Source: a virus (Duplodnaviria > Heunggongvirae > Uroviricota > Caudoviricetes). From it: DNA of 18,974 nucleotides. Made by a program: the position numbers and the translations under genes. The notes beneath the pieces were generated by a model. It saw only the letters and a program-made list of their open reading frames with translations, was not told the origin of the DNA and searched no databases. Position 1 is the stretch's first letter, and each line of letters starts with the position of its first letter. Below are positions 2,640 through 18,974 of the stretch, piece by piece. The DNA lies in the IMG/VR virus record IMGVR_UViG_3300036876_000145, positions 83,489 through 102,462 of that record. One strand, 5' to 3'.

Positions 2640-2718
2640 ATTCCGATGGCGTGAGCGGCGAAACCACTTGCCCTACAAGCAAGTATCATCGGGGGTTCGA
2701 GTCCCTCTCGGAATACCA
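2640..2718 (+). tRNA. non-canonical tRNA-like gene; anticodon loop CCUACAA reads as Val-UAC with C33; poorly paired D arm; CCA encoded
   Basis: Acceptor ATTCCGA/TCGGAAT. T arm GGGGG-TTCGAGT-CCCTC, then A73 and CCA. Anticodon stem CTTGC/GCAAG. The D region TGGCGTGAGCGGCGAAACCA offers only a 3-bp TGG/CCA stem. The variable region is 7 nt. Confidence 0.5.
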
Positions 2719-2729
2719 AATTTTAATGT

Positions 2730-2804
2730 GTGGGTGTCGTCCAATGGGAGGACTTTCGGTTTGCACCCGGAGAATGCGAGTTCGAGTCTCGTCACTCTAC
2801 ACCA
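2730..2804 (+). tRNA. tRNA-Ala(UGC) with one bulged nucleotide in the 3' strand of the acceptor stem
   Basis: D arm GTCC-AATGGGA-GGAC. Anticodon arm TTCGG-TTTGCAC-CCGGA. T arm GCGAG-TTCGAGT-CTCGT. The acceptor GTGGGTG pairs with CA(C)TCTAC and keeps G3:U70, A73 and CCA if C2795 is bulged. Confidence 0.7.
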
Positions 2805-2810
2805 AATGTG

Positions 2811-2886
2811 CCGTCCGCGACGGTGATAGATACCAGAAAGCTCTTCGGAGCGCTGGAATGGGGATCAGCCCCTTAGTCATCGCGGC
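2811..2886 (+). ncRNA. tRNA-sized structured spacer made of three hairpins, one capped by C(UUCG)G; not a cloverleaf
   Basis: Hairpins are CCGTC-CGC-GACGG (2811-2823), CCAG..GCTC-TTCG-GAGC..CTGG (2833-2856) and GGGG-ATCAG-CCCC (2860-2872). An alternative end pairing is CCGCGA 2815-2820 with TCGCGG 2880-2885. Confidence 0.3.
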
Positions 2887-2896
2887 TAAATTTATA

Positions 2897-2970
2897 AGCG
2901 GATTAGCCAAGTGGTTAAAGGCATCTGCCTGCAAAGCAGACAAGCACGGGTTCGAATCCCGTATCCGCTT
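2897..2970 (+). tRNA. tRNA-Cys(GCA)
   Basis: Acceptor AGCGGAT/ATCCGCT. D arm GCCA..AGGC with an A13:A22 mismatch. Anticodon loop CTGCAAA (GCA at 2931-2933). T arm ACGGG-TTCGAAT-CCCGT. U73. Confidence 0.9.
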
Positions 2971-2979
2971 CCCAAATTT

Positions 2980-3056
2980 GGGGGTATAGTTCCAACTGGT
3001 AGAACAGCGGCTTGTCGCGCCGATGGTTGCGGGTTCGAATCCCGTTACCCCCGCCA
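2980..3056 (+). tRNA. tRNA-Asp(GUC), CCA encoded
   Basis: Acceptor GGGGGTA/TACCCCC. D arm GTTC-CAACTGGTA-GAAC. Anticodon loop TTGTCGC (GTC at 3014-3016). T arm GCGGG-TTCGAAT-CCCGT. G73 and CCA. Confidence 0.92.
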
Positions 3057-3060
3057 GTTT

Positions 3061-3138
3061 GGTGTGTTGGAGGAGTCTGGTCTTCCTCGCTTCCCTGTCA
3101 CGGAAGATATCACACGGGTTCAAATCCCGTACACACCG
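3061..3138 (+). tRNA. second tRNA-Asp(GUC), with an 11-nt D loop and 7-nt variable region; no encoded CCA
   Basis: Acceptor GGTGTGT/ACACACC. D arm GAGG..CCTC. Anticodon arm CTTCC-CTGTCAC-GGAAG (GTC at 3097-3099). T arm ACGGG-TTCAAAT-CCCGT. G73. Confidence 0.8.
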
Positions 3139-3147
3139 CTTTCGTGA

Positions 3148-3179
3148 CTTCCTGAGTATTAAGTAGAGTACTCAGGAAG
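3148..3179 (+). promoter_or_regulatory. 11-bp hairpin sequestering the GIY-YIG ribosome-binding site
   Basis: CTTCCTGAGTA (3148-3158) pairs perfectly with TACTCAGGAAG (3169-3179). The 3' arm contains the AGGAAG SD, 4 nt before ATG 3184. Confidence 0.55.
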
Positions 3180-3183
3180 GTTC

Positions 3184-3834
3184 ATGATGAAATACACAGT
3201 CTACAAAACTGTGAATCTGGTCAACGGCAAGTTCTACATCGGTGTCCACAAGACGGACAATCCGAATGATGACTACCTTGGTTCTGGGAAGTTCATCAAA
3301 CGAGCCGTTGCGAAGTACGGAGAGCAGAATTTTCGCAAGGAAATTTTGGCTGTCTTTGAAATCCAGAGAGAAGCTTTCGATCTCGAAAAGAAACTCGTGG
3401 TTGAAGCGAAAGTTGATCCACTGTGTTACAACCTGAAAGCTGGCGGTGAAGGTGGGTTTGACTGGATCAATCGTAAGGGATTGAATAACTCGAACGAGAA
3501 CGGCGTGAAAGGAAATCGGGTTACAATTGGAAAAATAAAAACTGACCCAAAGGTAAAGAAGCGATTTACTGACAGGATCAATCGAGTTAGACAGTATCGT
3601 ACTCAAGACTACAAAGCTCGAATTCCTTCGATGTTACAAAAGTGGACAGGACAGCATCATACCGCCGAGACAAAGGCTAGACTTAGCGAAACGCATAAAG
3701 GTAAGAGCAACGGACGCTTTGGAAAACAGTGGATGTATCATCTCGAATCGCAGAGATCAAAGCCTGTCTCACCGGACGAGATCAATAGCCACATTGAACA
3801 AGGTTGGTTGATTGGTCGCCGGATGAAATTTTAG
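3184..3834 (+). CDS. free-standing GIY-YIG homing endonuclease (Seg/I-TevI-like)
   Basis: The N-terminus KYTVYKTVNLVNGKFYIGVHKT...YLGSGK...R...E..E is the classical GIY-YIG motif set. The gene sits between tRNA genes. ATG 3187 is an alternative start. The stop is TAG. Confidence 0.9.
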   Translation: MMKYTVYKTVNLVNGKFYIGVHKTDNPNDDYLGSGKFIKRAVAKYGEQNFRKEILAVFEIQREAFDLEKKLVVEAKVDPLCYNLKAGGEGGFDWINRKGLNNSNENGVKGNRVTIGKIKTDPKVKKRFTDRINRVRQYRTQDYKARIPSMLQKWTGQHHTAETKARLSETHKGKSNGRFGKQWMYHLESQRSKPVSPDEINSHIEQGWLIGRRMKF

Positions 3835-3841
3835 GAGAGAC

Positions 3842-4054
3842 GTGAAGATTCTCTACGATGAACAGCGGCATCTGATCACGGTGCCGTACTCGAAAGAGAA
3901 TCTACATGAAGCAGCGCGGCAGTTGGGTATTAAGCGTTGCTGGTTTCACAAAGACCACTACGACGTTCCTAAGAGAATGATGTCTCGGATGTCGGAGACG
4001 GTAGCAGAAAAAGTTTCGCCGCGTGAAGTTTTGAAGATCGTGCGCGGCAAGTAA
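3842..4054 (+). CDS. DUF4031-family small protein (70 aa)
   Basis: The pattern NLHEAARQLGIKRCWFHKDHYDVP matches my recollection of the DUF4031 signature (ELH.FA..G..R.WF....HYDVP). GTG start with a GGAG SD at 3834-3837. Confidence 0.75.
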   Translation: MKILYDEQRHLITVPYSKENLHEAARQLGIKRCWFHKDHYDVPKRMMSRMSETVAEKVSPREVLKIVRGK

Positions 4055-4058
4055 GTTT

Positions 4059-4135
4059 GGATGGATAGCCAAGTAGGAAAGGCGCTCCCCTGCAAAGGGA
4101 GTCATGCGGGGGTTCAATTCCCTCTCCATCCTCCA
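4059..4135 (+). tRNA. second tRNA-Cys(GCA), CCA encoded
   Basis: Acceptor GGATGGA/TCCATCC. D arm GCCA..AGGC (A13:A22). Anticodon arm CTCCC-CTGCAAA-GGGAG (GCA at 4092-4094). T arm GGGGG-TTCAATT-CCCTC. U73 and CCA. Confidence 0.88.
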
Positions 4136-4137
4136 AA

Positions 4138-4519
4138 TGTACCAGTTCGGGACAACCGCTGGCAGGAAGTTTCTGCGGGAGGGAAAGTTCGGGGCTTCAT
4201 AGAGTACCGTGCGGGGTAACTCCCCGGCGACGGCGCAAGCCGTTGACAATTAGAGCTACAGAGACGAGTCACAGAAGGTGTGCTTGGAAGCGCGTAAGAT
4301 TCACGTCGGTAGTGTTGATGTGAAATGCCCGACCAAGTCCCCTGATGTGGGTGAAACGAGCAATCTTCACGGGAAGCAAGTGCAAATAGGCTGACAGGAA
4401 CTACTCGTTCCGTTATGAATCAGCGGGTAGCATGCTTGAGCGTTGGAGTAATTCAACGCCTAGACGAATGGTTGTCGCCGCGCAAGCGGAACAGAACCCC
4501 GGCTAATAGGACTGGTACA
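4138..4519 (+). ncRNA. rnpB: RNase P RNA, bacterial type A (M1-like), apparently complete
   Basis: P1 4138-4146/4511-4519. P2 4151-4157/4470-4476. P3 4162-4176. CR-I-like GGGAGGGAAAGTTCGGGGCTTCATAGAG at 4177-4204. P8 4212-4226. P9 ACGGC-GCAA-GCCGT at 4230-4243. AAGCAAGTGCAAATAGG at 4374-4390. GGGTAGCATGCTTGAG at 4425-4440. GCCTAGACGAATGG at 4458-4471. AACAGAACCCCGGCTAATAGG at 4490-4510. These align with the recalled E. coli M1 RNA sequence. Confidence 0.9.
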
Positions 4520-4541
4520 AGTTTATGAGTTTTTGAACTAT

Positions 4542-4568
4542 GAGCGACCTATATTAGAGAGGTCGCTC
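4542..4568 (+). promoter_or_regulatory. 8-bp hairpin occluding the SD and GTG start of the HNH gene
   Basis: GAGCGACC (4542-4549) pairs with GGTCGCTC (4561-4568). Wobble and AU pairs extend the stem into GTG 4569-4571. The GAGAGG SD lies at the loop/stem junction. Confidence 0.5.
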
Positions 4569-5006
4569 GTGACAAGTCAAAAAGAAGTTCAAAGACAATT
4601 AGGAATGAGTCGAGGAACCGCCAACTACAGATTGGCGCGTCTTTTACTCTTCAAATACATGCAGCAAGCTGGGGCGGACAACTGTTTTCGCTGCGGTCTA
4701 AAGCTTGAAACGGTTGAAGATTTTAGTATTGAGCATAAAAAACCGTGGTTGTACGCATCCCCAGATTTATATTGGGATTTGGAAAATATTGCTTTTTCGC
4801 ATCGCGCATGTAATTCGGGCGCAGCTAGACAGATCAATAAGACCAAAATGAGTCTTAGATCAGTAGGACCGGAAGGAACAAGTTGGTGTACGGAACATAA
4901 ACAGTTTCTTTCAGTCGATGAATTTCAAAAAAATTCCGCTATTTGGAACGGCTTACAAAGGCAATGCAAAGAATGCCGACAAAAGCGAAATAAAAAGCGG
5001 GCTTAG
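4569..5006 (+). CDS. free-standing HNH homing endonuclease
   Basis: CFRCG...SIEHKKPW...NIAFSHRACN is an HNH motif, and a C-terminal CKEC adds a zinc-finger pair. The ORF is open from TTG 4533, but GTG 4569 has a GAGG SD 6 nt upstream. The TAG stop (5004-5006) lies inside tRNA-Gly. Confidence 0.88.
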   Translation: MTSQKEVQRQLGMSRGTANYRLARLLLFKYMQQAGADNCFRCGLKLETVEDFSIEHKKPWLYASPDLYWDLENIAFSHRACNSGAARQINKTKMSLRSVGPEGTSWCTEHKQFLSVDEFQKNSAIWNGLQRQCKECRQKRNKKRA

Positions 5007-5073
5007 CTCACGCTGGTAGAGCGCTGGTCTTCCAAACCGGAGGTAACGGGATCGTCGCCCGTAGTCCGCTCCA
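4997..5073 (+). tRNA. tRNA-Gly(UCC) with an unusual T loop ATCGTCG (A54/U58 swap); CCA encoded
   Basis: Acceptor GCGGGCT/AGTCCGC. D arm GCTC-ACGCTGGTA-GAGC. Anticodon arm CTGGT-CTTCCAA-ACCGG (TCC at 5031-5033). T stem ACGGG/CCCGT. U73 and CCA. The 5' end overlaps the HNH CDS by 10 nt. Confidence 0.85.
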
Positions 5074-5084
5074 AGTTTAGATAT

Positions 5085-5160
5085 GGCGCACTCTGCTAAC
5101 GGCTAGGCAACCACGTTCTCAGCGTGTGAAATGTGGGTTCAAATCCCGCGTGCGCTACCA
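5085..5160 (+). tRNA. tRNA-Glu(CUC), CCA encoded
   Basis: Acceptor GGCGCAC/GTGCGCT (G1:U72). D arm TGCT-AACGGCTA-GGCA. Anticodon loop TTCTCAG (CTC at 5118-5120). T arm GTGGG-TTCAAAT-CCCGC. A73 and CCA. Confidence 0.85.
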
Positions 5161-5167
5161 GATTTTG

Positions 5168-5222
5168 GCTGACCATGTTCGGCAAGGTCAGCGGTTGGGG
5201 GACATGGCTCAGTACAACCGCT
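5168..5222 (+). other. structured spacer in a tRNA-sized slot: two overlapping hairpins, no cloverleaf
   Basis: GCTGACC (5168-5174) pairs with GGTCAGC (5186-5192). AGCGGTTG (5190-5197) pairs with CAACCGCT (5215-5222). The loop of the second hairpin contains TGGCTCAGT, which resembles a D loop. Confidence 0.25.
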
Positions 5223-5231
5223 GATAACCGT

Positions 5232-5307
5232 GGGGCTATGGCGCAGTTGGGAGCGCGTAATCATGGCATGATTAAGGCCGTCGGTTCGAACCCGACTAGC
5301 TCCACCA
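5232..5307 (+). tRNA. tRNA-Ala(GGC), CCA encoded
   Basis: Acceptor GGGGCTA/TAGCTCC with G3:U70. D arm GCGC-AGTTGGGA-GCGC. Anticodon loop ATGGCAT (GGC at 5265-5267). T arm GTCGG-TTCGAAC-CCGAC. A73 and CCA. Confidence 0.93.
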
Positions 5308-5313
5308 GATTTT

Positions 5314-5388
5314 GCGGAAGTAGTTCAGCGGTAGAATATTTCCTTGCCAAGGAAGGGGTCGCGGGTTCAAATCCCGCCTTCCGCTCCA
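5314..5388 (+). tRNA. tRNA-Gly(GCC), CCA encoded
   Basis: Acceptor GCGGAAG/CTTCCGC. Anticodon loop TTGCCAA (GCC at 5346-5348). T arm GCGGG-TTCAAAT-CCCGC. U73 and CCA. Confidence 0.92.
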
Positions 5389-5399
5389 AGTTTAGAAGT

Positions 5400-5461
5400 T
5401 CATGGATGCCTAGATGTCGGTGGCTAACCGAAAGGTCGCGGGTTCAATGTCCGTTCCATGT
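5400..5461 (+). ncRNA. 62-nt truncated tRNA-like RNA with normal acceptor and T arms but no normal D-plus-anticodon region
   Basis: Acceptor CATGGA/TCCATG. T arm GCGGG-TTCAATG-TCCGT. The interior is only 31 nt and folds in one of two ways. Fold 1 is GCC-11 nt-GGC plus ACC-GAAA-GGT. Fold 2 is TCGGT-GGCTA-ACCGA with no D arm. It abuts the next tRNA with no spacer. Confidence 0.4.
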
Positions 5462-5537
5462 GGGGCTATAGCGCAGTTGGGAGCGCGTCTCGTTCGCAAC
5501 GAGAAGGTCGTGAGTTCGAATCTCACTAGCTCCACCA
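5462..5537 (+). tRNA. tRNA-Ala(CGC), CCA encoded
   Basis: Acceptor and D arm are nearly identical to Ala(GGC), with G3:U70. Anticodon loop TTCGCAA (CGC at 5495-5497). T arm GTGAG-TTCGAAT-CTCAC. A73 and CCA. Confidence 0.93.
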
Positions 5538-5544
5538 AGTTATT

Positions 5545-5617
5545 GCGGGTGTAGTTCAATGGTAGAATATTCGGTTCCCAACCGAAAGATTTGTCGGTTC
5601 GAGTCCGACCATCCGCT
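5545..5617 (+). tRNA. tRNA-Gly(CCC)
   Basis: Acceptor GCGGGTG/CATCCGC. D arm GTTC-AATGGTA-GAAT. Anticodon loop TTCCCAA (CCC at 5577-5579). T arm GTCGG-TTCGAGT-CCGAC. U73. CCA is not fully encoded. Confidence 0.88.
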
Positions 5618-5624
5618 CCGTTTT

Positions 5625-5768
5625 ATGAGAGAGTGTCCAAAGTGCGGTAAGAAAGAACAATGGGAAATCGGTTGGATTTCTACTACCAATGAATGGCGCT
5701 GGCATTGTCTGTCTTGTGATATTCGTTTTAATGATGATGGCGTAATTTACACACCAGAAAAAGTTTAG
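5625..5768 (+). CDS. 47-aa zinc-ribbon protein (MRECPKCGKKEQWEIGWISTTNEWRWHCLSCDIRFNDDGVIYTPEKV)
   Basis: A CPKC...CLSC pair of Cys knuckles. The track ORF 5559-5768 begins inside tRNA-Gly, so ATG 5625 is the first start outside it. No clear SD. Confidence 0.55.
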   Translation: MRECPKCGKKEQWEIGWISTTNEWRWHCLSCDIRFNDDGVIYTPEKV

Positions 5769-5787
5769 GGCCGTGGGACTGCATTGG

Positions 5788-5815
5788 GGTGGTTCGAATC
5801 TCACTAGCTCCACCA
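5788..5815 (+). pseudogene. orphan 3' fragment of tRNA-Ala (T loop, acceptor 3' strand and CCA)
   Basis: 5792-5819 is a perfect 28-nt copy of 5514-5541, the 3' end of tRNA-Ala(CGC) plus its spacer. No matching 5' half or cloverleaf lies upstream. Confidence 0.6.
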
Positions 5816-5822
5816 AGTTTAC

Positions 5823-5926
5823 GTAGGCTTCCGAGGGATACCTCGGTGACAGTTGTTCTGAGGTCATCTCTTCATGAGGGGCTGAACAGGGAACGGCAGC
5901 GTGGGGAAACCCACAAGCCTACACCA
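5823..5926 (+). ncRNA. 104-nt tRNA-shaped RNA of unrecognised family: 8-bp acceptor-like stem plus A-CCA, SelC-like 6-bp/4-nt D arm, long anticodon-like arm with loop CUUCAUG, and a GAAA-capped T-arm substitute
   Basis: GTAGGCTT (5823-5830) pairs with AAGCCTAC (5915-5922), then A and CCA. D arm CCGAGG-GATA-CCTCGG at 5831-5846. TGTTC 5854-5858 pairs with GAACA 5884-5888, stacked on an imperfect stem 5862-5869/5877-5883 with loop 5870-5876. GTGGG-GAAA-CCCAC at 5901-5914. The flanking spacers match those of real tRNAs in the array. Confidence 0.5.
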
Positions 5927-5929
5927 TTT

Positions 5930-6005
5930 GCGCTGTTAGATTAGCGGTAAAATCGTCACCATGACAAGGTGAAAATCGGGGGTTCGATTCCCTCACGGCG
6001 CACCA
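5930..6005 (+). tRNA. tRNA-Val(GAC), CCA encoded
   Basis: Acceptor GCGCTGT/ACGGCGC. D arm GATT-AGCGGTAA-AATC. Anticodon loop ATGACAA (GAC at 5963-5965). T arm GGGGG-TTCGATT-CCCTC. A73 and CCA. Confidence 0.92.
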
Positions 6006-6017
6006 GTTTTTAAATAT

Positions 6018-6095
6018 GGCGTTGTCTTCTAAATGGTCTAGGAAAACTGACTTTCAATCAGTGGAATGCCGGTTCAACTCCGGTCAACGCTACCA
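6018..6095 (+). tRNA. tRNA-Glu(UUC), CCA encoded
   Basis: Acceptor GGCGTTG/CAACGCT (G1:U72). Anticodon arm ACTGA-CTTTCAA-TCAGT (TTC at 6053-6055). T arm GCCGG-TTCAACT-CCGGT. A73 and CCA. Confidence 0.85.
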
Positions 6096-6102
6096 GAATT
6101 GA

Positions 6103-6177
6103 GAGGGAGTAGCTCAGCGGTAGAGCAGAATATTGCCAATATTCAGGTCGCGGGTTCAACTCCCGTCTCCCTCTCCA
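6103..6177 (+). tRNA. second tRNA-Gly(GCC), CCA encoded
   Basis: Acceptor GAGGGAG/CTCCCTC. D arm GCTC-AGCGGTA-GAGC. Anticodon loop TTGCCAA (GCC at 6135-6137). T arm GCGGG-TTCAACT-CCCGT. U73 and CCA. Confidence 0.92.
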
Positions 6178-6226
6178 ACATTTATGCGAATCTATTCAAA
6201 AGTTTATTTTCGCTTTATGGTGTGTT

Positions 6227-6382
6227 ATGAGAAAACTAAAGAGACTAAGCAAGGTCAAACTCGTGAAGGAAATGTCCAGGGAGAGGGTGCCAGTCCCCGC
6301 GACCCGCAAGATTGAAAATAAGAAAAAGAAATTTTTGCGTTACTTAGAAACACATTGGCAGGAAGATGAATTGGGGGTATAG
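6227..6382 (+). CDS. 51-aa highly basic ORF (MRKLKRLSKVKLVKEMSRERVPVPATRKIENKKKKFLRYLETHWQEDELGV), hypothetical
   Basis: Own translation; below the track cutoff. The stop TAG (6380-6382) lies inside the next tRNA-Ala. No clear SD. A 43-codon alternative frame starting at ATG 6184 looks less protein-like. Confidence 0.3.
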   Translation: MRKLKRLSKVKLVKEMSRERVPVPATRKIENKKKKFLRYLETHWQEDELGV

Positions 6383-6448
6383 CTCAGCTGGGAGAGCGCA
6401 TCGTTTGCAACGATGAGGTCGTCGGTTCGATCCCGTCTACCTCCACCA
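6373..6448 (+). tRNA. tRNA-Ala(UGC), CCA encoded
   Basis: Acceptor GGGGGTA/TACCTCC with G3:U70. D arm GCTC-AGCTGGGA-GAGC. Anticodon loop TTTGCAA (TGC at 6406-6408). T arm GTCGG-TTCGATC-CCGTC with one U:U mismatch. A73 and CCA. Confidence 0.9.
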
Positions 6449-7032: not shown

Positions 7033-7070
7033 GGTATTATAGATAATGGGGTATTATAGATAATGGGGTA
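7033..7070. repeat. 17-bp tandem direct repeat (GGTATTATAGATAATGG x2 plus a partial copy) in a divergent promoter region
   Basis: Copies at 7033-7049 and 7050-7066, with a partial copy at 7067-7070. Each unit carries GATAAT on the + strand and TATAAT on the - strand. Confidence 0.8.
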
Positions 7071-7073
7071 CTT

Positions 7074-7766
7074 ATGCCAAAAATAGTTTTTATTTCAGAT
7101 ACTCATGGGTTACACGGTCAGATGCAGGTGCCCGAAGGAGATATTTTAGTTCATGCTGGAGATATGACTAATGTAGGGCGTATAAATGAAGTTGCTGCCT
7201 TGGGCGTATGGCTCCGTGAAATGGAAAAACGTTTTAAATTTATCGTGATCGTCGCGGGTAATCACGATTGGCTTTTTCAGAAAAATAGAGCCTTGGCTGA
7301 AAGCCTGATAAATCAAGGTACAATGGGAGAAGCTACGGGTAAAATCATCTATTTACAAGATAGTGGAGTTACAATTGATGGCTTAAAAATACATGGAAGT
7401 CCTCAAACTCCTTGGTTTTTTGATTGGGCCTTTAATGTACGCCGAGGAGAACTTAAGCCCTATTGGGATAAGATCCCTGAAGGTCTGGACATATTAATTA
7501 CTCACGGTCCTCCCAGTGGTATACTGGATCAAGCAGACCCTCATTTAGGCAGTGAACATGTAGGCTGTGAAGAACTTATGGAAGCGGTGGAGCGCACCAA
7601 ACCAAAAATCCATGTATTCGGACATATACATGGCGGGTATGGTAAAATGGAACATGTGAATACCACATTTATCAATGCTTCAATTTGCGATGAACGGTAC
7701 AAACCGATTAACGCCCCTTGGGTTATTGATATGGAGCCCCGTGATACACATGGCGAAGAAAAATAA
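7074..7766 (+). CDS. calcineurin-like metallophosphoesterase
   Basis: The motif series ISDTHG, HAGDMTN, VAGNHD, ITHGPP and VFGHIHG. Confidence 0.92.
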   Translation: MPKIVFISDTHGLHGQMQVPEGDILVHAGDMTNVGRINEVAALGVWLREMEKRFKFIVIVAGNHDWLFQKNRALAESLINQGTMGEATGKIIYLQDSGVTIDGLKIHGSPQTPWFFDWAFNVRRGELKPYWDKIPEGLDILITHGPPSGILDQADPHLGSEHVGCEELMEAVERTKPKIHVFGHIHGGYGKMEHVNTTFINASICDERYKPINAPWVIDMEPRDTHGEEK

Positions 7767-12356: not shown

Positions 12357-15300
12357 ATGTCTTTTAATTATCCACAAGCTCAAAACGCATTATCACTACA
12401 AGGAAATACTGTAGCTTCTACCACCCCAACTGCGGGGCAAGTACTGGTTTGGAATGGAAGCCAGTGGCAACCCGGAGCAGGAGCATCGGGGGCTAATTAT
12501 AATGTTGTTTATTCCAGTGATTACAACTGGAGTTTGAATTATCAAGCAGGGTGGGGGGCTCTTACGGCTGGTGTGCCAGCTACTTTAACTTTAGCAACCT
12601 GCCCTGTAGGAGTTGACACAAGCGCATCTACTATTTTAGGTGGCCCACAAGGGGCCTATTCGATTTATATCTCCGGATCAGACGGAATAGCGGAGGTTGT
12701 TAAAATTACAGGAGGTACTTGTACTCCTGGTATGACAAATGGGACAATACAATTTATTCCAGCTAATAATCATACTGTATCTGGCGGTAGTCCTCCAACT
12801 GGTTATACTTTAAGTTCAGCAACCGCTGGAATCCAAGAAGCAATCAATACAGCTTGCGGTACAAGTCAAACTTACTACGATAACTCTAACTGTAAAGTGG
12901 TTATTCCTCCATCAGGGGAATTGAGTGGAATGAATGGATACAATATTTATGACACAATCTACTTCCATTCAAATCAAAGTATCCTCAGTGGGTATGGAGC
13001 AACATTAAATCATTATGGAAGAGGCCCATGCCTACAGTTAGGAAATCTACTCAGTTCGAACGATTATGTGAGCAATAGAATAGAAGGTATGATGTTTCGG
13101 GCTCCTGTTTACCAGACAGCAACTGGAACTCTTAACACAAATGGCACAGCTGTGGTAACAGCTGCCGGAATCAGTAAATTCGGCACAAACTGGGCGTCTG
13201 GGTCTAACATATTAATTAATGGAACTGCCTACACGATCGCATTTGTCAACAGCAACACTCAAATAACATTGACAACCACAATTTTAACAGCATCAGGTTT
13301 ATCTTATGCTTATCAAGCGTACTCTGGGTCTTTAATTACAAGCACTCAAAGAACGAACGGGGTTACTACAATTACCACCAGCGAACCCCACGGGTTTGTA
13401 ACTGGGGATCGCGTAACTCAAATGCTGACCGATAATTCAGCTTTTTGGGGGGATGTTCCTTACATAACAGTTACTAGTCCAACTACCTATACATATGGAC
13501 GCTGGCTAAATGGGAATTCCGCAAGTAATATTACTGCAACTTCTATCACATCGAATGTCCTTACGATAATGGCGAATAATAGCTTTACTGTAGGGGAAAA
13601 TGTTCTTTTAGCGGGGACATCTGAAAGTTATCTTAACAATAAAGTAGTGACAGTCGCAAGTTTATTGGGGGCTAGCGGTTCTCCCCCAACATATACAGGA
13701 TTTACAGCGAACTTCACCGCAACTAACTATTCTAACCCATCAGAGCCGTCTACCGCTGAAGCTTACCCACCAGTAGGTAATATCGCTCTTCAAACCACAC
13801 CGGGGGTGGTTGCTCTTACTTATGTAGCGATATTAGATAACGCTGGAGGCAGTCAATTAGTGGATATTAGTTCTGCAAATGCTTATCAAGAATATTATTT
13901 CAATCATTTTTTTGACCTTTGGGATGACGAGTGCTGTACAATAAAGTCTTTCAATAATAACGCTGGATCCTTACAAAATAATGTAAACTGGACAGGATCT
14001 TTTATATGGTCTGGGGGAGCCTCCGGTTTACCTTTAGCTGCCAATCAACTAGCCCCTGTCATTACCCTTAAAGATTCTAATATTACGGCCAATTGCTCGA
14101 ATGGTGTTACAGTCTATAACTCCAACGGAGTTTATATTCATGATACAGTTCTGCAAGCAACCGGACCTTGGCAGGTGTATACGTCTAATGCCACAGGTAA
14201 CTATCAAGGGGCCCACTTGGAAAATTTGTATTCTGAATCTTCCGCTAGCTCCAATCCAGCCTCCCCTGTTCGTAGCCCCTATGCAGGCTGTGGTATTGCA
14301 GGAGCAATTTTTGGGCCAAGCACGGGAGCGGCTTCTTTTAGAATTAAAGGAACGGGGGTTGAAGGGCAACTTCCAACTGTAGGTGCAGGTGCAACATCCT
14401 ATCTCTATTATGTAGTAATTAATGATACAACAACGGGCACATCATCTGCCCCTCTGCCTGTAATGATTGCGAATTCCAACGGAGGGGCAGTTACAGTTTC
14501 TTGGCCACGAGTATCAAATGGAACAGATTCTATTACATATGATGTATTGCGTGTTTCTCCGAATACATTAGGAAGTATATCAAATATCGGTCCTTACACT
14601 GGAGGTTGTCCTGGTGGGGTTACACAATCACCCCCTAGTGTTAGCACAATGGGAAGTGTAGTGACTGGGCAAGCTCAACAATCTGGCTTTATTCAGACTT
14701 TTGTGGATAATACTACAGTTCCCACATCAAATTATCCTACAGTGCCGATCGGGAGTTATCAAGGTAATATTTTGTTCTGGCCTGGACAAGCGATTACTGT
14801 AGGAATAACCCCTATTATCAGCGACAATATTGTTAATGTTTATAGTACAGGGGCGTGTGGAAGTCCGACAAATATTTGTTTATATCCAGGACACGGAAGT
14901 GGTGCGGCACCAGCTATATCGGCATCTACCGCTACTAGTTTCGCTTTAAACGATTTATATGAACAACAAGCTCTTATTTTAAATGATGGCTGGTATCAAG
15001 GACCACAAACAGCAAATCTTAAAGGACGTTTGCAATTTGCCTCATCTGGGTTAGCTTTCCCGGGAGAGGTTAATAACGGACATATTATTACTTTAGTGGA
15101 TTCTGATCCTCAATTGACCAGGGCTTACGCATTAAATCGTCCACCCAATTCATCTTCTGATTGTTTCATTGGAATTGACGGTATTGGTCCATATTACGCT
15201 AATGTAGCTCCAATTGCTATAGGCTCTCCAGTTTCTATTAGTCATTATATAGCAAACATTGGTGACGGTACGAATTGGAAAGAACGATTAACATCATCAG

Positions 15301-16226
15301 TTAAACAGTTCAAAGTTCCTGTACAACTAGAGTCAGTAACATTTGCTACTTTACCATCATCCCCAGCGAATGGCATGGAAGTATATTGTTCTGATTGTAC
15401 TTTTGGATCAAACCCCTGTACAGGTAGTGGCACAGGATCTTTTGCATATCGAGTTAATGGCGCGTGGGTTTGTAGCGATTCGAGTGGGTCCGGTGGAGTA
15501 AACGCCACTAATTCACCATCACAATATGCTGTAACTACTTGGGTAAACAGCACTACTATTGAAGGCATTGCGCCATCTTCTACAAGTGGGTATCCTTTAT
15601 TATCTAATGGTTCATCTGCGTATGCTTCTTTTGGGCAACTCTCAGTCGGAGCAATTAGTGCCACGGGCACACCGTCTTCCACCACTTATTTGAGGGGAGA
15701 TGGTAGCTGGGCTACTGTATCTGGTAGTGGGACAGTTACTTCTGTAGCGATGACCGTACCAGCCTGGTTATCCGTGAGCGGGTCTCCTATAACCGGCACT
15801 GGTACGCTTGCCATCACTTCAGCGGGGAGTTTGACCCAAAACTGGGTCTTAGCTACTCCTAATGGCAGCAGCGGTGTATTAGCTCCTCGTGCCTTGGTAG
15901 CGGCGGACATTCCAACTTTAGGAGTAAGTACCGTTAGTTTTTCAGCAACGCCAATTTTCAACGCTACTGGTTATAGCGGATTCAAAATAACTCTGACCGG
16001 TAATGTTACCAGCTCCACATTCACAAATGGGACGGCAGGAAGTCTTTACACTTTTGAGATCACGCAGGACGGAACAGGTGGTCGGACATTTGTCTGGCCC
16101 GCTAATTTTAAAGGCGGCGCAAGTGTGACAGATCAGGCCGCAGGATCCAACGAGACAATAGCACAGTTATTTTATTTTGACGGCAGCAATGCACTTGCTG
16201 TTGGTCCAGGAATGGTGACCCCATAA
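12357..16226 (+). CDS. large tail fibre / tailspike-like protein, 1289 aa
   Basis: The N-terminus [15 protein letters not shown] is typical of fibres. The C-terminal module [30 protein letters not shown]...[25 protein letters not shown] is shared with the upstream gene. AAGGAAA SD. Confidence 0.92.
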
Positions 16227-18974
16227 TGTCAATTCGCATTTACTTTCTCGCTTTAATTATTGCACTAACATCTTTGGCTGGTGCGCAAAATATTACCGGT
16301 AACAGTTTGACACTCTCGCCTACTTTGACCGTAGGTACACTTCCATCAGCAGCAACCAATAAGGGGCGCACGTTTTCTATCAGTGACGGATTAAATTCTA
16401 CCGACTGTACTGTTGGCGGAGGAACTAACCATGTATGGTGCTGGTCAAATGGAACTATCTACGCAGTGCCGTTTGGGTCGGCAGCAGGGGGCGTCACTTC
16501 CATTAATACCGTAGCCGGGGCGTTTACATTCAGCGGACCTGGGGTAACTTGTACAAGCACGGCTTGCACATTTTCCGGTACAGGAGTATCTTCTGTTTCG
16601 AACAGCGATGGAACTCTGACGATATCTCCCAACACAGGAGCAGTCGCAGTTTCGCTTGCTTTAAGTCATGCTAACACATGGACAAATCAGACGATTGACG
16701 GGGTGACCCCAACCACTTTTGGCTTCGTCGATCCCACGTCTAGTATTCAGACGCAGTTGAATGCCAAGGCTAACTCCAGCGTGACTACTCTTTCTTCGTT
16801 GATTGCGGCTGCTGGGGGTACGTTTGGGACGTGTGCGTTTGTGAATACTTGTGGTTCGGGAGGAACGTATAGCGCGGTTACTTCTCCGATTACGGCATCT
16901 AGCAGCACGCTCCAGTTTTCCGCGTCTCTGCTGAACTACGGTGGCAACGGAAATGGGACTTCAGACAACTCCACGGCCATGACTTCAGCGTGCGCCGCGA
17001 ACTCAGAAGTCTGGTTGCCTGCTGGGGCGTATGCGTTCACATCGAACTATGCCGTGTCGTGCGGGCTTCACTTCGGCGCTGGGGCAACGCTTGTAGCCCC
17101 GACTGGAGTAACGGTTACAGTCAATGGCAAGATCGACGCTCCCACTGTGCCAATATTTACTGTAGCTGGAACCGGGAAGTTTCTTATCGGTCCAGGAACT
17201 CCTGTCGATTACGCGGAGTGGTTTGGAGCGAAGGGCGATAACTCAACCGACGATACAATTCCTATCACATCCTGCGCCAACAATTTTACCAAATCAGGGT
17301 TGTGCCAGCTTCTTGGGAAGTCCTATAAAACAACAAACGTCATCATTCTTAGCACCAGCTATACAGGGCTGATAGGAGTAGATTCGGGGCAGACACAAGG
17401 GCCACAGCCCACTGGTTCGGGATACTCCCAGATCAATAACAATAGCGCTACATCGGACATCATCGACATAAGCGGGAGTGGGATTTTGCCTTACGGTGTA
17501 ACGGTGAAAAACCTTACCTTGGCCAAATCCGTTGCAGCCACAAACGCAGGTGCGAATGGGCTATATCTGGGAACTGGGTTCTGGCATTTTGTTGATAACA
17601 TCAATATTTGGGACGCGCCCAATGGAGTGACTGTCGGTGCCTCTGCTACCGTGATAGTGACGAACGTCAACGTCAACTGGTCCTCTCTCTGTTGCTCAGT
17701 GCCCGTCGTAGGGTTCAACTTGAACGGACCTTCGAATGTCTTCTCTAATATCTTCGCAGAGAGGGAAGGTTCCAGTGCGAGTGCCACCGGTTTTGCAATG
17801 GCAGCGGGAGGTACCGGACTGAGCGACGTATGGGTGAATAACGCTCAGGCTGATTTCGTCGGGACAGGGTTCTTGATCGACGTAACTGCGTGTGTGGCCG
17901 CTGATCCTAGCAACGAATGTGCAACGGACATTCACATTACCAATCCTATTATCAATGTGAGCAATACAGGGTTTAGTTTTGTGAACTTGAACTCGGCCAC
18001 TGGTCCCCAAGGGCCGTCAGTCGATATCGTCGGGGGTTCGTTCCTGGAAAGCTCCGGTAACGCGTTTACCTTCACTAACTCCACCACAGGGTACAACATC
18101 GAGCACTTTAACAGTCAGGCAGGTGGTGTTAACACTTTCATCAATCGGACCATGCCGTCTGCGTTCTTCTCCATACCAGTATGTAGCGCGAGCTATGAAG
18201 GGTCGTATGAATCGTTTAATGATTCCGCGACGAATACACAAGGAGCAACGATCACGGGCAGCGGAACGAATCATGTGCTCGGGTACTGCAACGGAACGAA
18301 CTGGGTAGTAGCCTCGGGGAGCGGCAGTGGGAGCAGCGGACTATCTGGCATGACAGCTACACAGATCCCGATTGCTGCCTCATCCTCGACCGTAACTAGT
18401 TCCGTACCAGCACCCACAGGCACAATTGTAGGGACAACCGATACCCAAACTCTCACGAATAAGACATTGGACGGTGTATCCCCAACAACATTTGGATATG
18501 TTGACCCTACTTCCAGTATCCAGACGCAGTTGAACGCCAAGCAAGGGACGCTCACAGGCACCGGGTTGGCTCGCAACACCGGAGCATCCTCGGAACTGAG
18601 CGGCGACTGCGCCACCAGCGGATCAAACGCTATCGTCTGTACGAAGACGAACGGGACGGCTTTCGGCACTGGAGCTACGGCTACCATCGCCAACTACGCC
18701 CTGCTGACCGGAGCGACCTTCAGTGGTGCGATCTCCGCCGCCGGGATCACGAACTCATCCGTATCCAGCGCCGGTTGTGCGACGTTCAGTTCTGGTGGAG
18801 TTCTGACCAGCACAGGAACGGCTTGCGGTAGCGGATCTGGTGGCGATACGATCACATCACCCAACAGCACGCTTTCCGTGGGTGGAACTTCTGCGGCAAC
18901 AACGCTCGATCTCAACCTTGGCCACGCGAACACCTGGACGGCGACTCAGACTTTTCCGAATGGGTCGATCACGT
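16226..18974 (+). CDS. tailspike/depolymerase-like protein with pectate-lyase-type (right-handed beta-helix) motifs; 3' end beyond the window (at least 916 codons)
   Basis: Not in the ORF track because it has no stop in the window. I checked every TAA, TAG and TGA from 16226 to 18974 and none is in this frame. The ATG overlaps the upstream TAA (TAATG). Motifs include [18 protein letters not shown], a tailspike N-cap-like motif, and a repeated DGV(T/S)PTTFG(F/Y)[14 protein letters not shown]. Confidence 0.88.

Follow-up and report, generated by a model that had tools for sequence, protein, structure and literature searches.

The stretch of DNA analysed here, 18,974 nucleotides catalogued as belonging to a virus of the Caudoviricetes and called the window throughout, carries a gene for the RNA subunit of RNase P (rnpB) inside a dense array of tRNA genes. 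An earlier note, made from the sequence letters, had recognized at this place a complete class A RNase P RNA in a phage-like tRNA array, and this identification holds. When the whole window was scanned against Rfam 15 with cmscan, the bacterial class A model RF00010 (RNaseP_bact_a) matched the plus strand at 4139-4522; it scored 169.1 bits, where the gathering threshold is 100 (E value 2.5e-53). The match spans model positions 1 to 367 of 367, untruncated, and class A is the top-scoring model in its clan; the covariance-model check that the note had proposed thus gave a score well above the threshold, not a poor one. RF00010 is the sole non-tRNA family in the window, and 103 of the 121 highly conserved (upper-case) positions of the Rfam consensus are identical in the window RNA; most of the mismatches fall within helices whose pairing is compensated or where P13/P14 are deleted. 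Unlike the housekeeping rnpB of cells, which is a single chromosomal copy outside any tRNA cluster with rnpA in the same genome, the window gene sits amid 16 same-strand tRNA genes (about 20 in the earlier count, which ARAGORN and Rfam correct).

A secondary structure of the window RNA was assembled manually, with the cmscan alignment and local folding as guides, and a script verified each pair (Table 1). P1 to P3, P5, P7 to P11 and P15 to P19 are perfectly complementary, as are the pseudoknots P4 and P6. The helices P2, P3, P8, P9 with its GCAA loop, P15 to P17 and P18 had all been named in the note and are all present and fully complementary, the conserved blocks that it quoted are found in the sequence, and P1 is there as well, although longer than the 9 bp (4138-4146/4511-4519) it had been given. 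In common with E. coli M1 RNA and RF00010, the window RNA has P1 to P12, P15 to P18, the P4 and P6 pseudoknots, the conserved regions (CR) CR-I to CR-V, the bulged U, the GGU of L15, and GNRA loops on P9 and P18. Type-A peripheral elements are P6 with P16/P17, and P18 with its GNRA loop; P16, P17 and P18 are complementary and covarying, and the type-B elements P5.1, P10.1 and P15.1 are absent. On alignment the nucleotides of the catalytic core are retained, namely the bulged U, the L15 GGU and the J5/15 block CAAAUAGG. This last block holds the equivalent of E. coli A248. In E. coli RNase P RNA, A248 is described as contacting nucleotide -1 of the pre-tRNA (PMC10465520). The hexanucleotide ACAGAA (4491-4496) stands directly 5' of CR-V. 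No family of the hepatitis delta virus (HDV)-like type rose above its threshold in the Rfam scan of the window; the RNA is an RNase P RNA of about 380 nt, not a theta or HDV-like ribozyme.

The claim that the architecture of M1 RNA is reproduced stands for the core helices but not for the periphery: P13/P14, present in M1 and in the model consensus, are absent from the window RNA, P12 is elaborated, and a P19 is present. The specificity (S) domain runs from CR-II ACAGAGACGAGUC through a single P12 to CR-III GGGUGAAACGAGCAAUCU, and in the RF00010 alignment about 44 model positions are deleted and about 70 nt inserted at the P12-P14 region. Missing P13/P14 have been called "not unusual" among bacteria by Lui et al. 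2021 (PMC8172020); since this is known natural variation within type A, their absence does not bar membership of class A. The elaborate P12 of the window also occurs in two relatives (L204 and L208; L numbers designate retrieved loci), with compensatory changes. Among the matches listed from 185,579 species genomes, the signature extending from CR-III to J5/15 belongs mainly to Betaproteobacteria, both Burkholderiales and others, while a few of the matches are from Omnitrophota and Planctomycetes.

P4 departs further from the canonical structure. The note had held its pairing to be preserved, and GGGG 4191-4194 does pair with CCCC 4497-4500 within this helix, but the register is altered. Canonical P4 consists of three pairs, a bulged U and five pairs (3+5; AAAGU-CCGGG with CCCGGCUU), and this arrangement is seen in E. 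coli and, among the matches listed, in every retrieved cellular sequence whose CR-I and CR-V matched the search expressions. In the window, A-U and G-C are followed by the bulged U4188 and then by six pairs (U.G, C-G and four G-C), that is, 2+6 bp; the U.G replaces the canonical C70-G357 pair, and J3/4 is one nucleotide longer. Most members of the variant subfamily described below have lost one A of J3/4 together with the proximal A-U pair, which leaves eight pairs in total and brings the bulged U one step nearer J3/4; the window, unlike them, keeps AAA, and its J3/4 contains an additional G. Across 15 aligned sequences P4 is 98.3% paired, and the extra distal pair covaries, being A-U in ten and G-C in five. 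The shifted position of the bulged uridine is notable because this nucleotide is described as universally conserved and as a ligand of the catalytic metal M1 (PMC3488217).

Table 1. Features of the RNase P RNA gene and of its surroundings, in window coordinates
Feature	Position	Strand	Remarks
rnpB-like gene for a bacterial RNase P RNA of class A, without P13/P14, with P19	4138-4519	+	bounded by the outermost nucleotides of P1
P1	4138-4148/4509-4519		11 bp
P2	4151-4157/4470-4476
P3	4159-4167/4171-4179
CR-I, 5' strand of P4, AAAGUUCGGGG	4184-4194	+	A4186 and G4187 paired; catalytic uridine U4188 bulged; U4189-G4194 form the six distal pairs
P6 pseudoknot	4202-4205/4403-4406	+	GAGU with ACUC in the P17 loop; 98.3% paired; 3 of 4 pairs change on both sides
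P8	4212-4226		CGGGG-UAACU-CCCCG, loop UAACU
P9 hairpin			loop GCAA
P12, elaborated hairpin	4270-4349	+	80 nt; fold -30.9 kcal/mol
CR-III, GGGUGAAA	4349-4356	+	directly 3' of P12
J5/15 block, CAAAUAGG	4383-4390	+	invariant in 15 of 15 aligned sequences; identical to the Rfam consensus
L15 (J16-15), GGGUA	4425-4429	+	GGU motif for pairing with tRNA 3'-RCCA; GGGU columns invariant in the alignment
P18 hairpin	4440-4459	+	GUAA (GNRA) loop; 8 of 8 pairs change on both sides; 96.7% paired
P19 hairpin, CCGC-GCAA-GCGG	4478-4489	+	between the 3' strand of P2 and the 3' strand of P4
CR-V, 3' strand of P4, CCCCGGCU	4497-4504	+	one C more than canonical CCCGGCU
tRNA array	2640-6448	+	16 same-strand genes enclosing rnpB; ARAGORN and Rfam agree
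tRNA-Cys(GCA)	4059-4135	+	encoded CCA end; 2 nt before 4138, AAU (3 nt) before G4139
GIY-YIG/NUMOD3 homing endonuclease	3184-3834	+	phrog_314, 2.5e-43; inserted upstream of tRNA-Cys
DUF4031 protein	3842-4054	+	PF13223, 1.3e-12; upstream of tRNA-Cys
HNH homing endonuclease	4569-5006	+	GTG start, 145 aa; phrog_23251, 2.4e-23; PF01844
Metallophosphoesterase	7074-7766	+	phrog_1649; syntenic downstream of rnpB/tRNA arrays in related elements
N6/N4 DNA methyltransferase	in window		phrog_67
HhH protein	in window		phrog_11575, 4e-44
Large orphan open reading frames (ORFans) of 858, 1289 and >916 aa	in window		no Pfam or PHROG match
SNF2-type helicase	upstream on longer contigs		phrog_62, 1.6e-71
Second phosphoesterase	upstream on longer contigs

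Selection on the fold was assessed on diverged relatives found through motif scans, as 11 copies of the locus itself, identical in RNA, gave no covariation. The alignment comprised the window RNA, 12 distinct members of its subfamily and the RNAs of L011 and L019 (15 sequences), and the 122 pairs of the window were counted in it. Standard pairs fill 90.5% of the pair cells, and sliding the 3' partners by one to three columns lowers this to 34-42%; 71 of the 122 pairs change on both sides, and none of 500 shuffles reaches any of five measures. Pairing is 100% in P5, P7, P8, the base of P9 (6 of 8 pairs), P10, P15, P16 and P17, and in P19 all four pairs change on both sides among the members that have this hairpin. 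The bulged U, the J5/15 block and the GGGU of L15 are invariant. On this comparative evidence, deep divergence with an intact fold is the signature of a functional RNA and not of a decaying capture.

The subfamily was delimited by scanning the variant CR-I pattern in a metagenome collection of 241 million records (the species-genome collection was scanned with the CR-III to J5/15 signature instead). This yielded 16 full-length loci, which represent 12 distinct sequences, and one copy truncated at a contig end. All 17 adjoin same-strand tRNA genes inside arrays, and none is chromosomal; all 12 distinct relatives pass RF00010, with 131-194 bits, and the subfamily lacks P13/P14, as does the window RNA. 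The same P4 register is present on three IMG/VR contigs (L060-L062; 141-170 bits), whose RNAs are those of three of the 12 and add no further sequence, so that three array-borne relatives lie on viral contigs of 42-265 kb. The gene is no recent acquisition from a host: the window RNA is 58-76% identical to its 12 array-borne relatives and reaches about 63% identity with the closest cellular rnpB among the matches listed, and each member of the subfamily is nearer to other array-borne members (73-84%) than to sampled cellular rnpB (61-74%, among the matches listed). Nearly all of the cellular rnpB loci, at least about 120 in number, have no tRNA gene within 3 kb. The hits added by a looser CR-I pattern in IMG/VR (L183-L189) were all due to chance, and so were four from the metagenomes that fell within protein-coding genes (L190, L194, L198, L199). 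Two structural additions were seen in some of the relatives: L204, L205, L207, L208 and L210 have an extra GNRA-capped hairpin that follows P17 and precedes the 3' strand of P16 (alignment columns ~419-434), and P3 is enlarged to about 70-110 nt in L208, L210 and L206.

RNase P RNAs with a canonical P4 also reside in such arrays. A scan of IMG/VR with the canonical CR-I 16-mer gave 45 loci, many of which are, by Rfam and ARAGORN, full-length class A RNAs in dense same-strand arrays (L011, L013, L016, L019, L024, L034, L036, L043, L046 and L047), with a tRNA gene typically 1-17 nt away. At least 14 IMG/VR contigs, of 24-463 kb, have rnpB inside a tRNA array; the remaining hits lack adjacent tRNA genes and look like host flanks. 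The array-borne RNAs are of several unrelated sequence types (high-GC with P13/P14, proteobacterial-like, and P13/P14-less, the RNAs of L011 and L019 being without P13/P14 and with canonical P4), and this diversity suggests several independent acquisitions of rnpB by arrays. The 3'-CCA is encoded in 109 of the 116 tRNA genes (94%) of subfamily arrays and in all of those of L011 and L019, against 39% in arrays with other rnpB types (L016, L024, L034, L036, L043, L046, L047), a difference that hints that rnpB type and the CCA status of the array track host lineage. The invariant GGU motif of L15, which pairs with RCCA, matches the encoding of CCA in 94% of the co-located tRNAs and supports the view that substrates and ribozyme are carried on one element. 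In this respect the note's proposal of an element with both a tRNA set and the ribozyme that matures it is reinforced by 12 diverged, covarying, array-embedded relatives. Two other kinds of IMG/VR locus were observed. L027 (6583-6880; IMG/VR 3300009702_000014, 202 kb) holds a minimal 298-nt class A RNA (173 bits) with no tRNA gene in the 8-kb locus and a group I intron 3 kb away. An identical 339-nt class A RNA, apparently without P18 and with no tRNA gene nearby, lies on L006 (12670-13008) and L045 (3911-4249), contigs of 372 and 497 kb that may be cellular and misclassified as viral.

In the window, the 16 tRNA genes occupy 3.8 kb, interrupted by the GIY-YIG and HNH insertions; their spacers are short and U-rich, many of them of 4-12 nt, and 14 of the 16 tRNAs have a U at -1. 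That almost all encode the 3'-CCA, as had been stated, is correct for 14 of them, the exceptions being tRNA-Asp (3061-3139) and tRNA-Gly(CCC) (5545-5619); one tRNA-Ala was clipped by ARAGORN, and since A-CCA follows it was counted as CCA-encoding. The spacing of 2 nt after tRNA-Cys and the GIY-YIG/DUF4031 and HNH flanks are likewise as described before, the latter by Pfam and PHROG matches. About 44 kb of the element, which extends over at least 108 kb, was examined. There, as the note had remarked for the window, no rnpA-like gene is visible: none of the called genes has a Ribonuclease_P Pfam hit, and tblastn with the E. coli and B. subtilis RnpA proteins gave nothing at E below 0.1.

We consider it probable that the window holds a genuine, structurally constrained RNase P RNA gene on a large phage-like element, and that its product, to judge from sequence and predicted fold, acts as a ribozyme with a protein subunit supplied by the host. 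The RNA would be transcribed from the same strand as the 16 surrounding tRNA genes, probably in the same precursor or precursors. Its 5' end would be freed by 3'-processing of the tRNA-Cys 3 nt upstream. In relatives that have no HNH gene at this place, its 3' end would be generated when RNase P matures the 5' end of the tRNA that follows. Folded as a type-A ribozyme, it would most likely assemble with host RnpA, because no Ribonuclease_P domain or RnpA-like open reading frame is present in the 44 kb; even with the independence from host RNase P that the note had considered, a protein cofactor would still be required. It may then cleave the 5' leaders of the phage pre-tRNAs, the encoded 3'-CCA being read by the GGU of L15 and the U at -1 by the J5/15 adenosine. 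The gain would be added processing capacity for expression of the dense array, and a capacity that could persist if transcription of host rnpB, or the stability of its RNA, collapses during infection.

Several observations weigh against this reading. P4, in the catalytic core, leaves the canonical register, with six pairs instead of five past the bulged U, the first of them U.G. A scan for sigma-70 promoters and terminators did no better than on shuffled sequence and so defines no transcription unit. The cellular sequences used for comparison come from the CR-III pattern scan and are a biased sample of the matches listed, without the host's own rnpB. Furthermore, Pfam and PHROG reveal no capsid, portal or terminase gene in the 44 kb, and the large open reading frames (858, 1289, 629, 1228, 664 and 916+ aa) have no informative hit and no structural hallmark.

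The altered P4 could mean that the RNA is impaired at the active site and serves as a decoy or competitor, which binds host RnpA or pre-tRNAs and thereby throttles host tRNA maturation or redirects the protein; the want of a phage rnpA, which obliges the RNA to engage the host protein, would suit this role too. We nevertheless regard it as unlikely. What is conserved goes well beyond the needs of protein binding and includes every substrate-contacting element (the bulged U, J5/15, the L15 GGU, the T-loop-binding CR-II/CR-III, and P6, P8, P9 and P18 with GNRA loops, which covary), the variant P4 is conserved and covarying in 13 members, suggesting a working geometry and not decay, other phage arrays hold rnpB with a fully canonical P4, and 16 or more tRNA genes raise, and do not lower, the need of a phage for RNase P activity. 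Still less probable is a passive passenger, that is, a host rnpB fragment without function, gained by recombination or by gene conversion through homing endonucleases. Homing endonuclease genes do lie on both flanks, and rnpB is otherwise a cellular gene, but the gene is complete, compensatory double changes affect 71 of its pairs, its identity to the nearest cellular rnpB among the matches listed is only about 63%, against 58-76% to the 12 array-borne copies, and the same tRNA-abutting position recurs in diverged elements. The endonuclease genes, for their part, are insertions that vary among relatives and are no constant partner of rnpB.

An assembly chimera joining host rnpB to phage DNA, which the note had asked to be checked, is excluded, and we give it practically no weight. 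Exact-protein look-ups with the GIY-YIG endonuclease, the metallophosphoesterase and the 1289-aa protein showed an unchanged gene order on at least 11 contigs that were assembled independently from samples in ENA, JGI and Logan, the longest of 95 and 108 kb; the index of the collection has the flanking proteins in 127-155 blocks. The 11 loci retrieved first show 100% identity over the 385-nt RNA segment and 99.7-99.98% over the 13-17 kb around it; the junctions are thus the same on contigs from separate pipelines and samples, and composition at rnpB is continuous with that of the tRNA array. More weight, though still little, goes to the possibility that the element is not a virus, and that array and rnpB belong to a megaplasmid, an integrative element or an unusual cellular genome misclassified as viral. 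The lack of capsid, portal and terminase genes in a region made up mostly of ORFans favours it. So do the searches of IMG/VR, in which window-specific 17-18-mers failed to find the element and gave two chance hits (L001, L002) without an RNase P RNA, while the 1289-aa protein found no related locus. Homologues of this ORFan (12357-16226) lie, moreover, on contigs binned to metagenome-assembled genomes of Terriglobales, Terriglobia and Candidatus Sulfotelmatobacter (P0052, P0055, P0068, P0114, P0116, P0120). On the other side, the 44 kb contain no housekeeping genes; they contain three free-standing homing endonuclease genes, the SNF2 helicase, the methyltransferase and the phrog_11575 protein; many samples yield near-identical sequence, as an abundant phage would; and there is synteny with the IMG/VR viral contigs L019 (101 kb), L060 (265 kb) and L061/L195 (89 kb), with which the element shares the metallophosphoesterase (~74% amino acid identity), a 227-aa protein and, in part, the 858- and 1289-aa proteins. 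We therefore consider the element, with good confidence, to be a large phage, on the basis of its relatives and gene content, not of hallmark genes.

Peat and soil metagenomes are the source of the element, which stands far from cultured phages: tblastn against GenBank phages gave short, weak hits only. A deep protein search returned unnamed proteins only, some binned with Terriglobales. The binning of the 1289-aa homologues suggests either an acidobacterial host range for the phage group or mis-binned phage contigs. The element may infect Acidobacteriota, and the Terriglobales binning, which fits the origin from peat and soil, serves as a lead to the host only.

Rather more speculative, though worth stating, is the possibility that large phages acquired the RNase P ribozyme repeatedly, and that at least one lineage, including that of the window, became virus-specific with P4 in a new register. 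If so, the change in P4 could alter substrate preference or cofactor dependence, and the phage would mature its own CCA-bearing tRNAs on its own terms. tRNA maturation could then go on after shut-off of host RNA, or despite interference by the host or a rival phage with RNase P or with the tRNA supply. RNase P would then have its first viral representative, and nature would have supplied an experiment on the helix that is most conserved in the ribozyme.

Among known systems, the rnpB of plastids and cyanelles resembles the present case in that a small, non-autonomous genome keeps the RNase P RNA while the protein partner is encoded elsewhere. The organellar gene, however, descends vertically from the endosymbiont and often lacks the CCA-binding motif, whereas the window gene lies on a virus-like element and has kept it. 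Compared with type-A rnpB in general, the window copy lies on a phage-like element in a tRNA array, not as a lone chromosomal gene, and has no rnpA nearby. Compared with M1 it lacks P13/P14 and has a long P12, a P19, six instead of five pairs past the bulged U, U.G for C70-G357 and one more nucleotide in J3/4. The reduced type-A RNAs of candidate phyla radiation bacteria and those of Burkholderiales-like type also lack P13/P14, and the CR-II/CR-III signature of the window is common to rnpBs of Burkholderiales, Omnitrophota and Planctomycetes among the matches listed; these genes, in contrast, are chromosomal and single-copy, with canonical P4 length, no adjacent tRNAs and, among the matches listed, at most 63% identity. 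The ribozyme family is known, and what is new is its carrier, its role in the genome and the distinct structural subtype; the reduction of the S domain was already known.

Phage tRNA genes themselves are familiar. Huge phages carry dense same-strand tRNA arrays and supplement host translation with tRNAs, transfer-messenger RNA (tmRNA), aminoacyl-tRNA synthetases and ribosomal proteins (Al-Shayeb et al. 2020, PMC7162821), but the window array includes the enzyme that matures its products; RNase P is unmentioned both in that paper and in a 2026 review of jumbo phages (PMC13282480). Lui et al. found only tRNAs and a tmRNA in Rfam scans of megaphages (PMC8172020). The tRNA cluster of phage T4 also yields polycistronic pre-tRNAs that need RNase P for 5' maturation, and T4 depends for this wholly on the host, whereas the window element carries its own RNA subunit; T4 pre-tRNAs have historically been model substrates of RNase P, and a 2024 historical review treats phages solely as sources of substrates (PMC11143913). 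Theta ribozymes (Kienbeck et al. 2024, PMC10879173) are closest in setting, as phage ribozymes beside tRNAs proposed to lessen dependence on host RNases. They are, however, small and cis-acting and cut the 3' trailer, 5' maturation being left to cellular RNase P (PMC10879173), whereas the window RNA is large and predicted to act in trans on the 5' leader with multiple turnover. No description of a virus-encoded RNase P RNA was found in the searchable literature, which omits much subscription literature, and the note too knew of none, although the arrangement is not unique to the window and recurs in public viral and metagenome contigs. In sequence databases, blastn of the RNA against 50,697 GenBank phage records gave no match, and canonical phage-array rnpBs as queries found a few unannotated metagenomic fragments only and, at the sensitivity of blastn, no annotated rnpB in GenBank phages.

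RNase P RNA is treated as a universal housekeeping ribozyme of cells, and work on phage tRNAs (T4, huge phages, theta ribozymes) assumes 5' maturation by the host. A virus-borne lineage would extend the translation components carried by phages to a tRNA-processing ribozyme, and would give synthetic biology a compact module of tRNA array and processing enzyme. P4 variants supplied by nature, in which the bulged U has moved by one base pair, would make questions of active-site geometry directly testable. For annotators and binning tools there is a warning: an rnpB hit is no proof of cellular origin.

The remaining observations concern the neighbouring genes. The HNH gene sits between rnpB and tRNA-Gly (4997-5073), which it overlaps by 10 nt, and is called with 145 aa in independent contigs also; in relatives the RNA abuts a tRNA, and a homing endonuclease gene seems to have been inserted exactly at this junction of rnpB and tRNA. 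An 8-bp hairpin (4542-4549/4561-4568) stands directly 5' of it. DUF4031 was considered as a dedicated protein cofactor and rejected, as it is not conserved beside rnpB in relatives, and a permuted tmRNA called by ARAGORN at 5039-5537 is a false positive that spans several tRNAs. A metallophosphoesterase gene is also found downstream in L019 (~7050-7655), L060 (1-534), L195 (8391-9128) and L202 (8613-9374), with up to 74% amino acid identity; the enzyme may heal RNA ends or repair tRNAs in connection with the array. Fourteen of the 16 tRNAs decode GNN codons only (anticodons Val UAC and GAC; Ala UGC twice, GGC and CGC; Asp GUC twice; Glu CUC and UUC; Gly UCC, GCC twice and CCC), the other two being tRNA-Cys(GCA), so that this stretch of array looks either sorted by first codon base or grown through duplication and anticodon shifts. 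Further large ORFans lie downstream on the longer contigs. The gene after the 1289-aa open reading frame (window 16226-18974) varies among contigs that are otherwise ~99.9% identical (L054, L211-L214), reading as 629+1228, 629+1223 or 629+1063 aa or as a single 1380-aa frame, and similarity of the window to several contigs ends at 16794 or 17460; this large gene looks hypervariable and is possibly related to host range.

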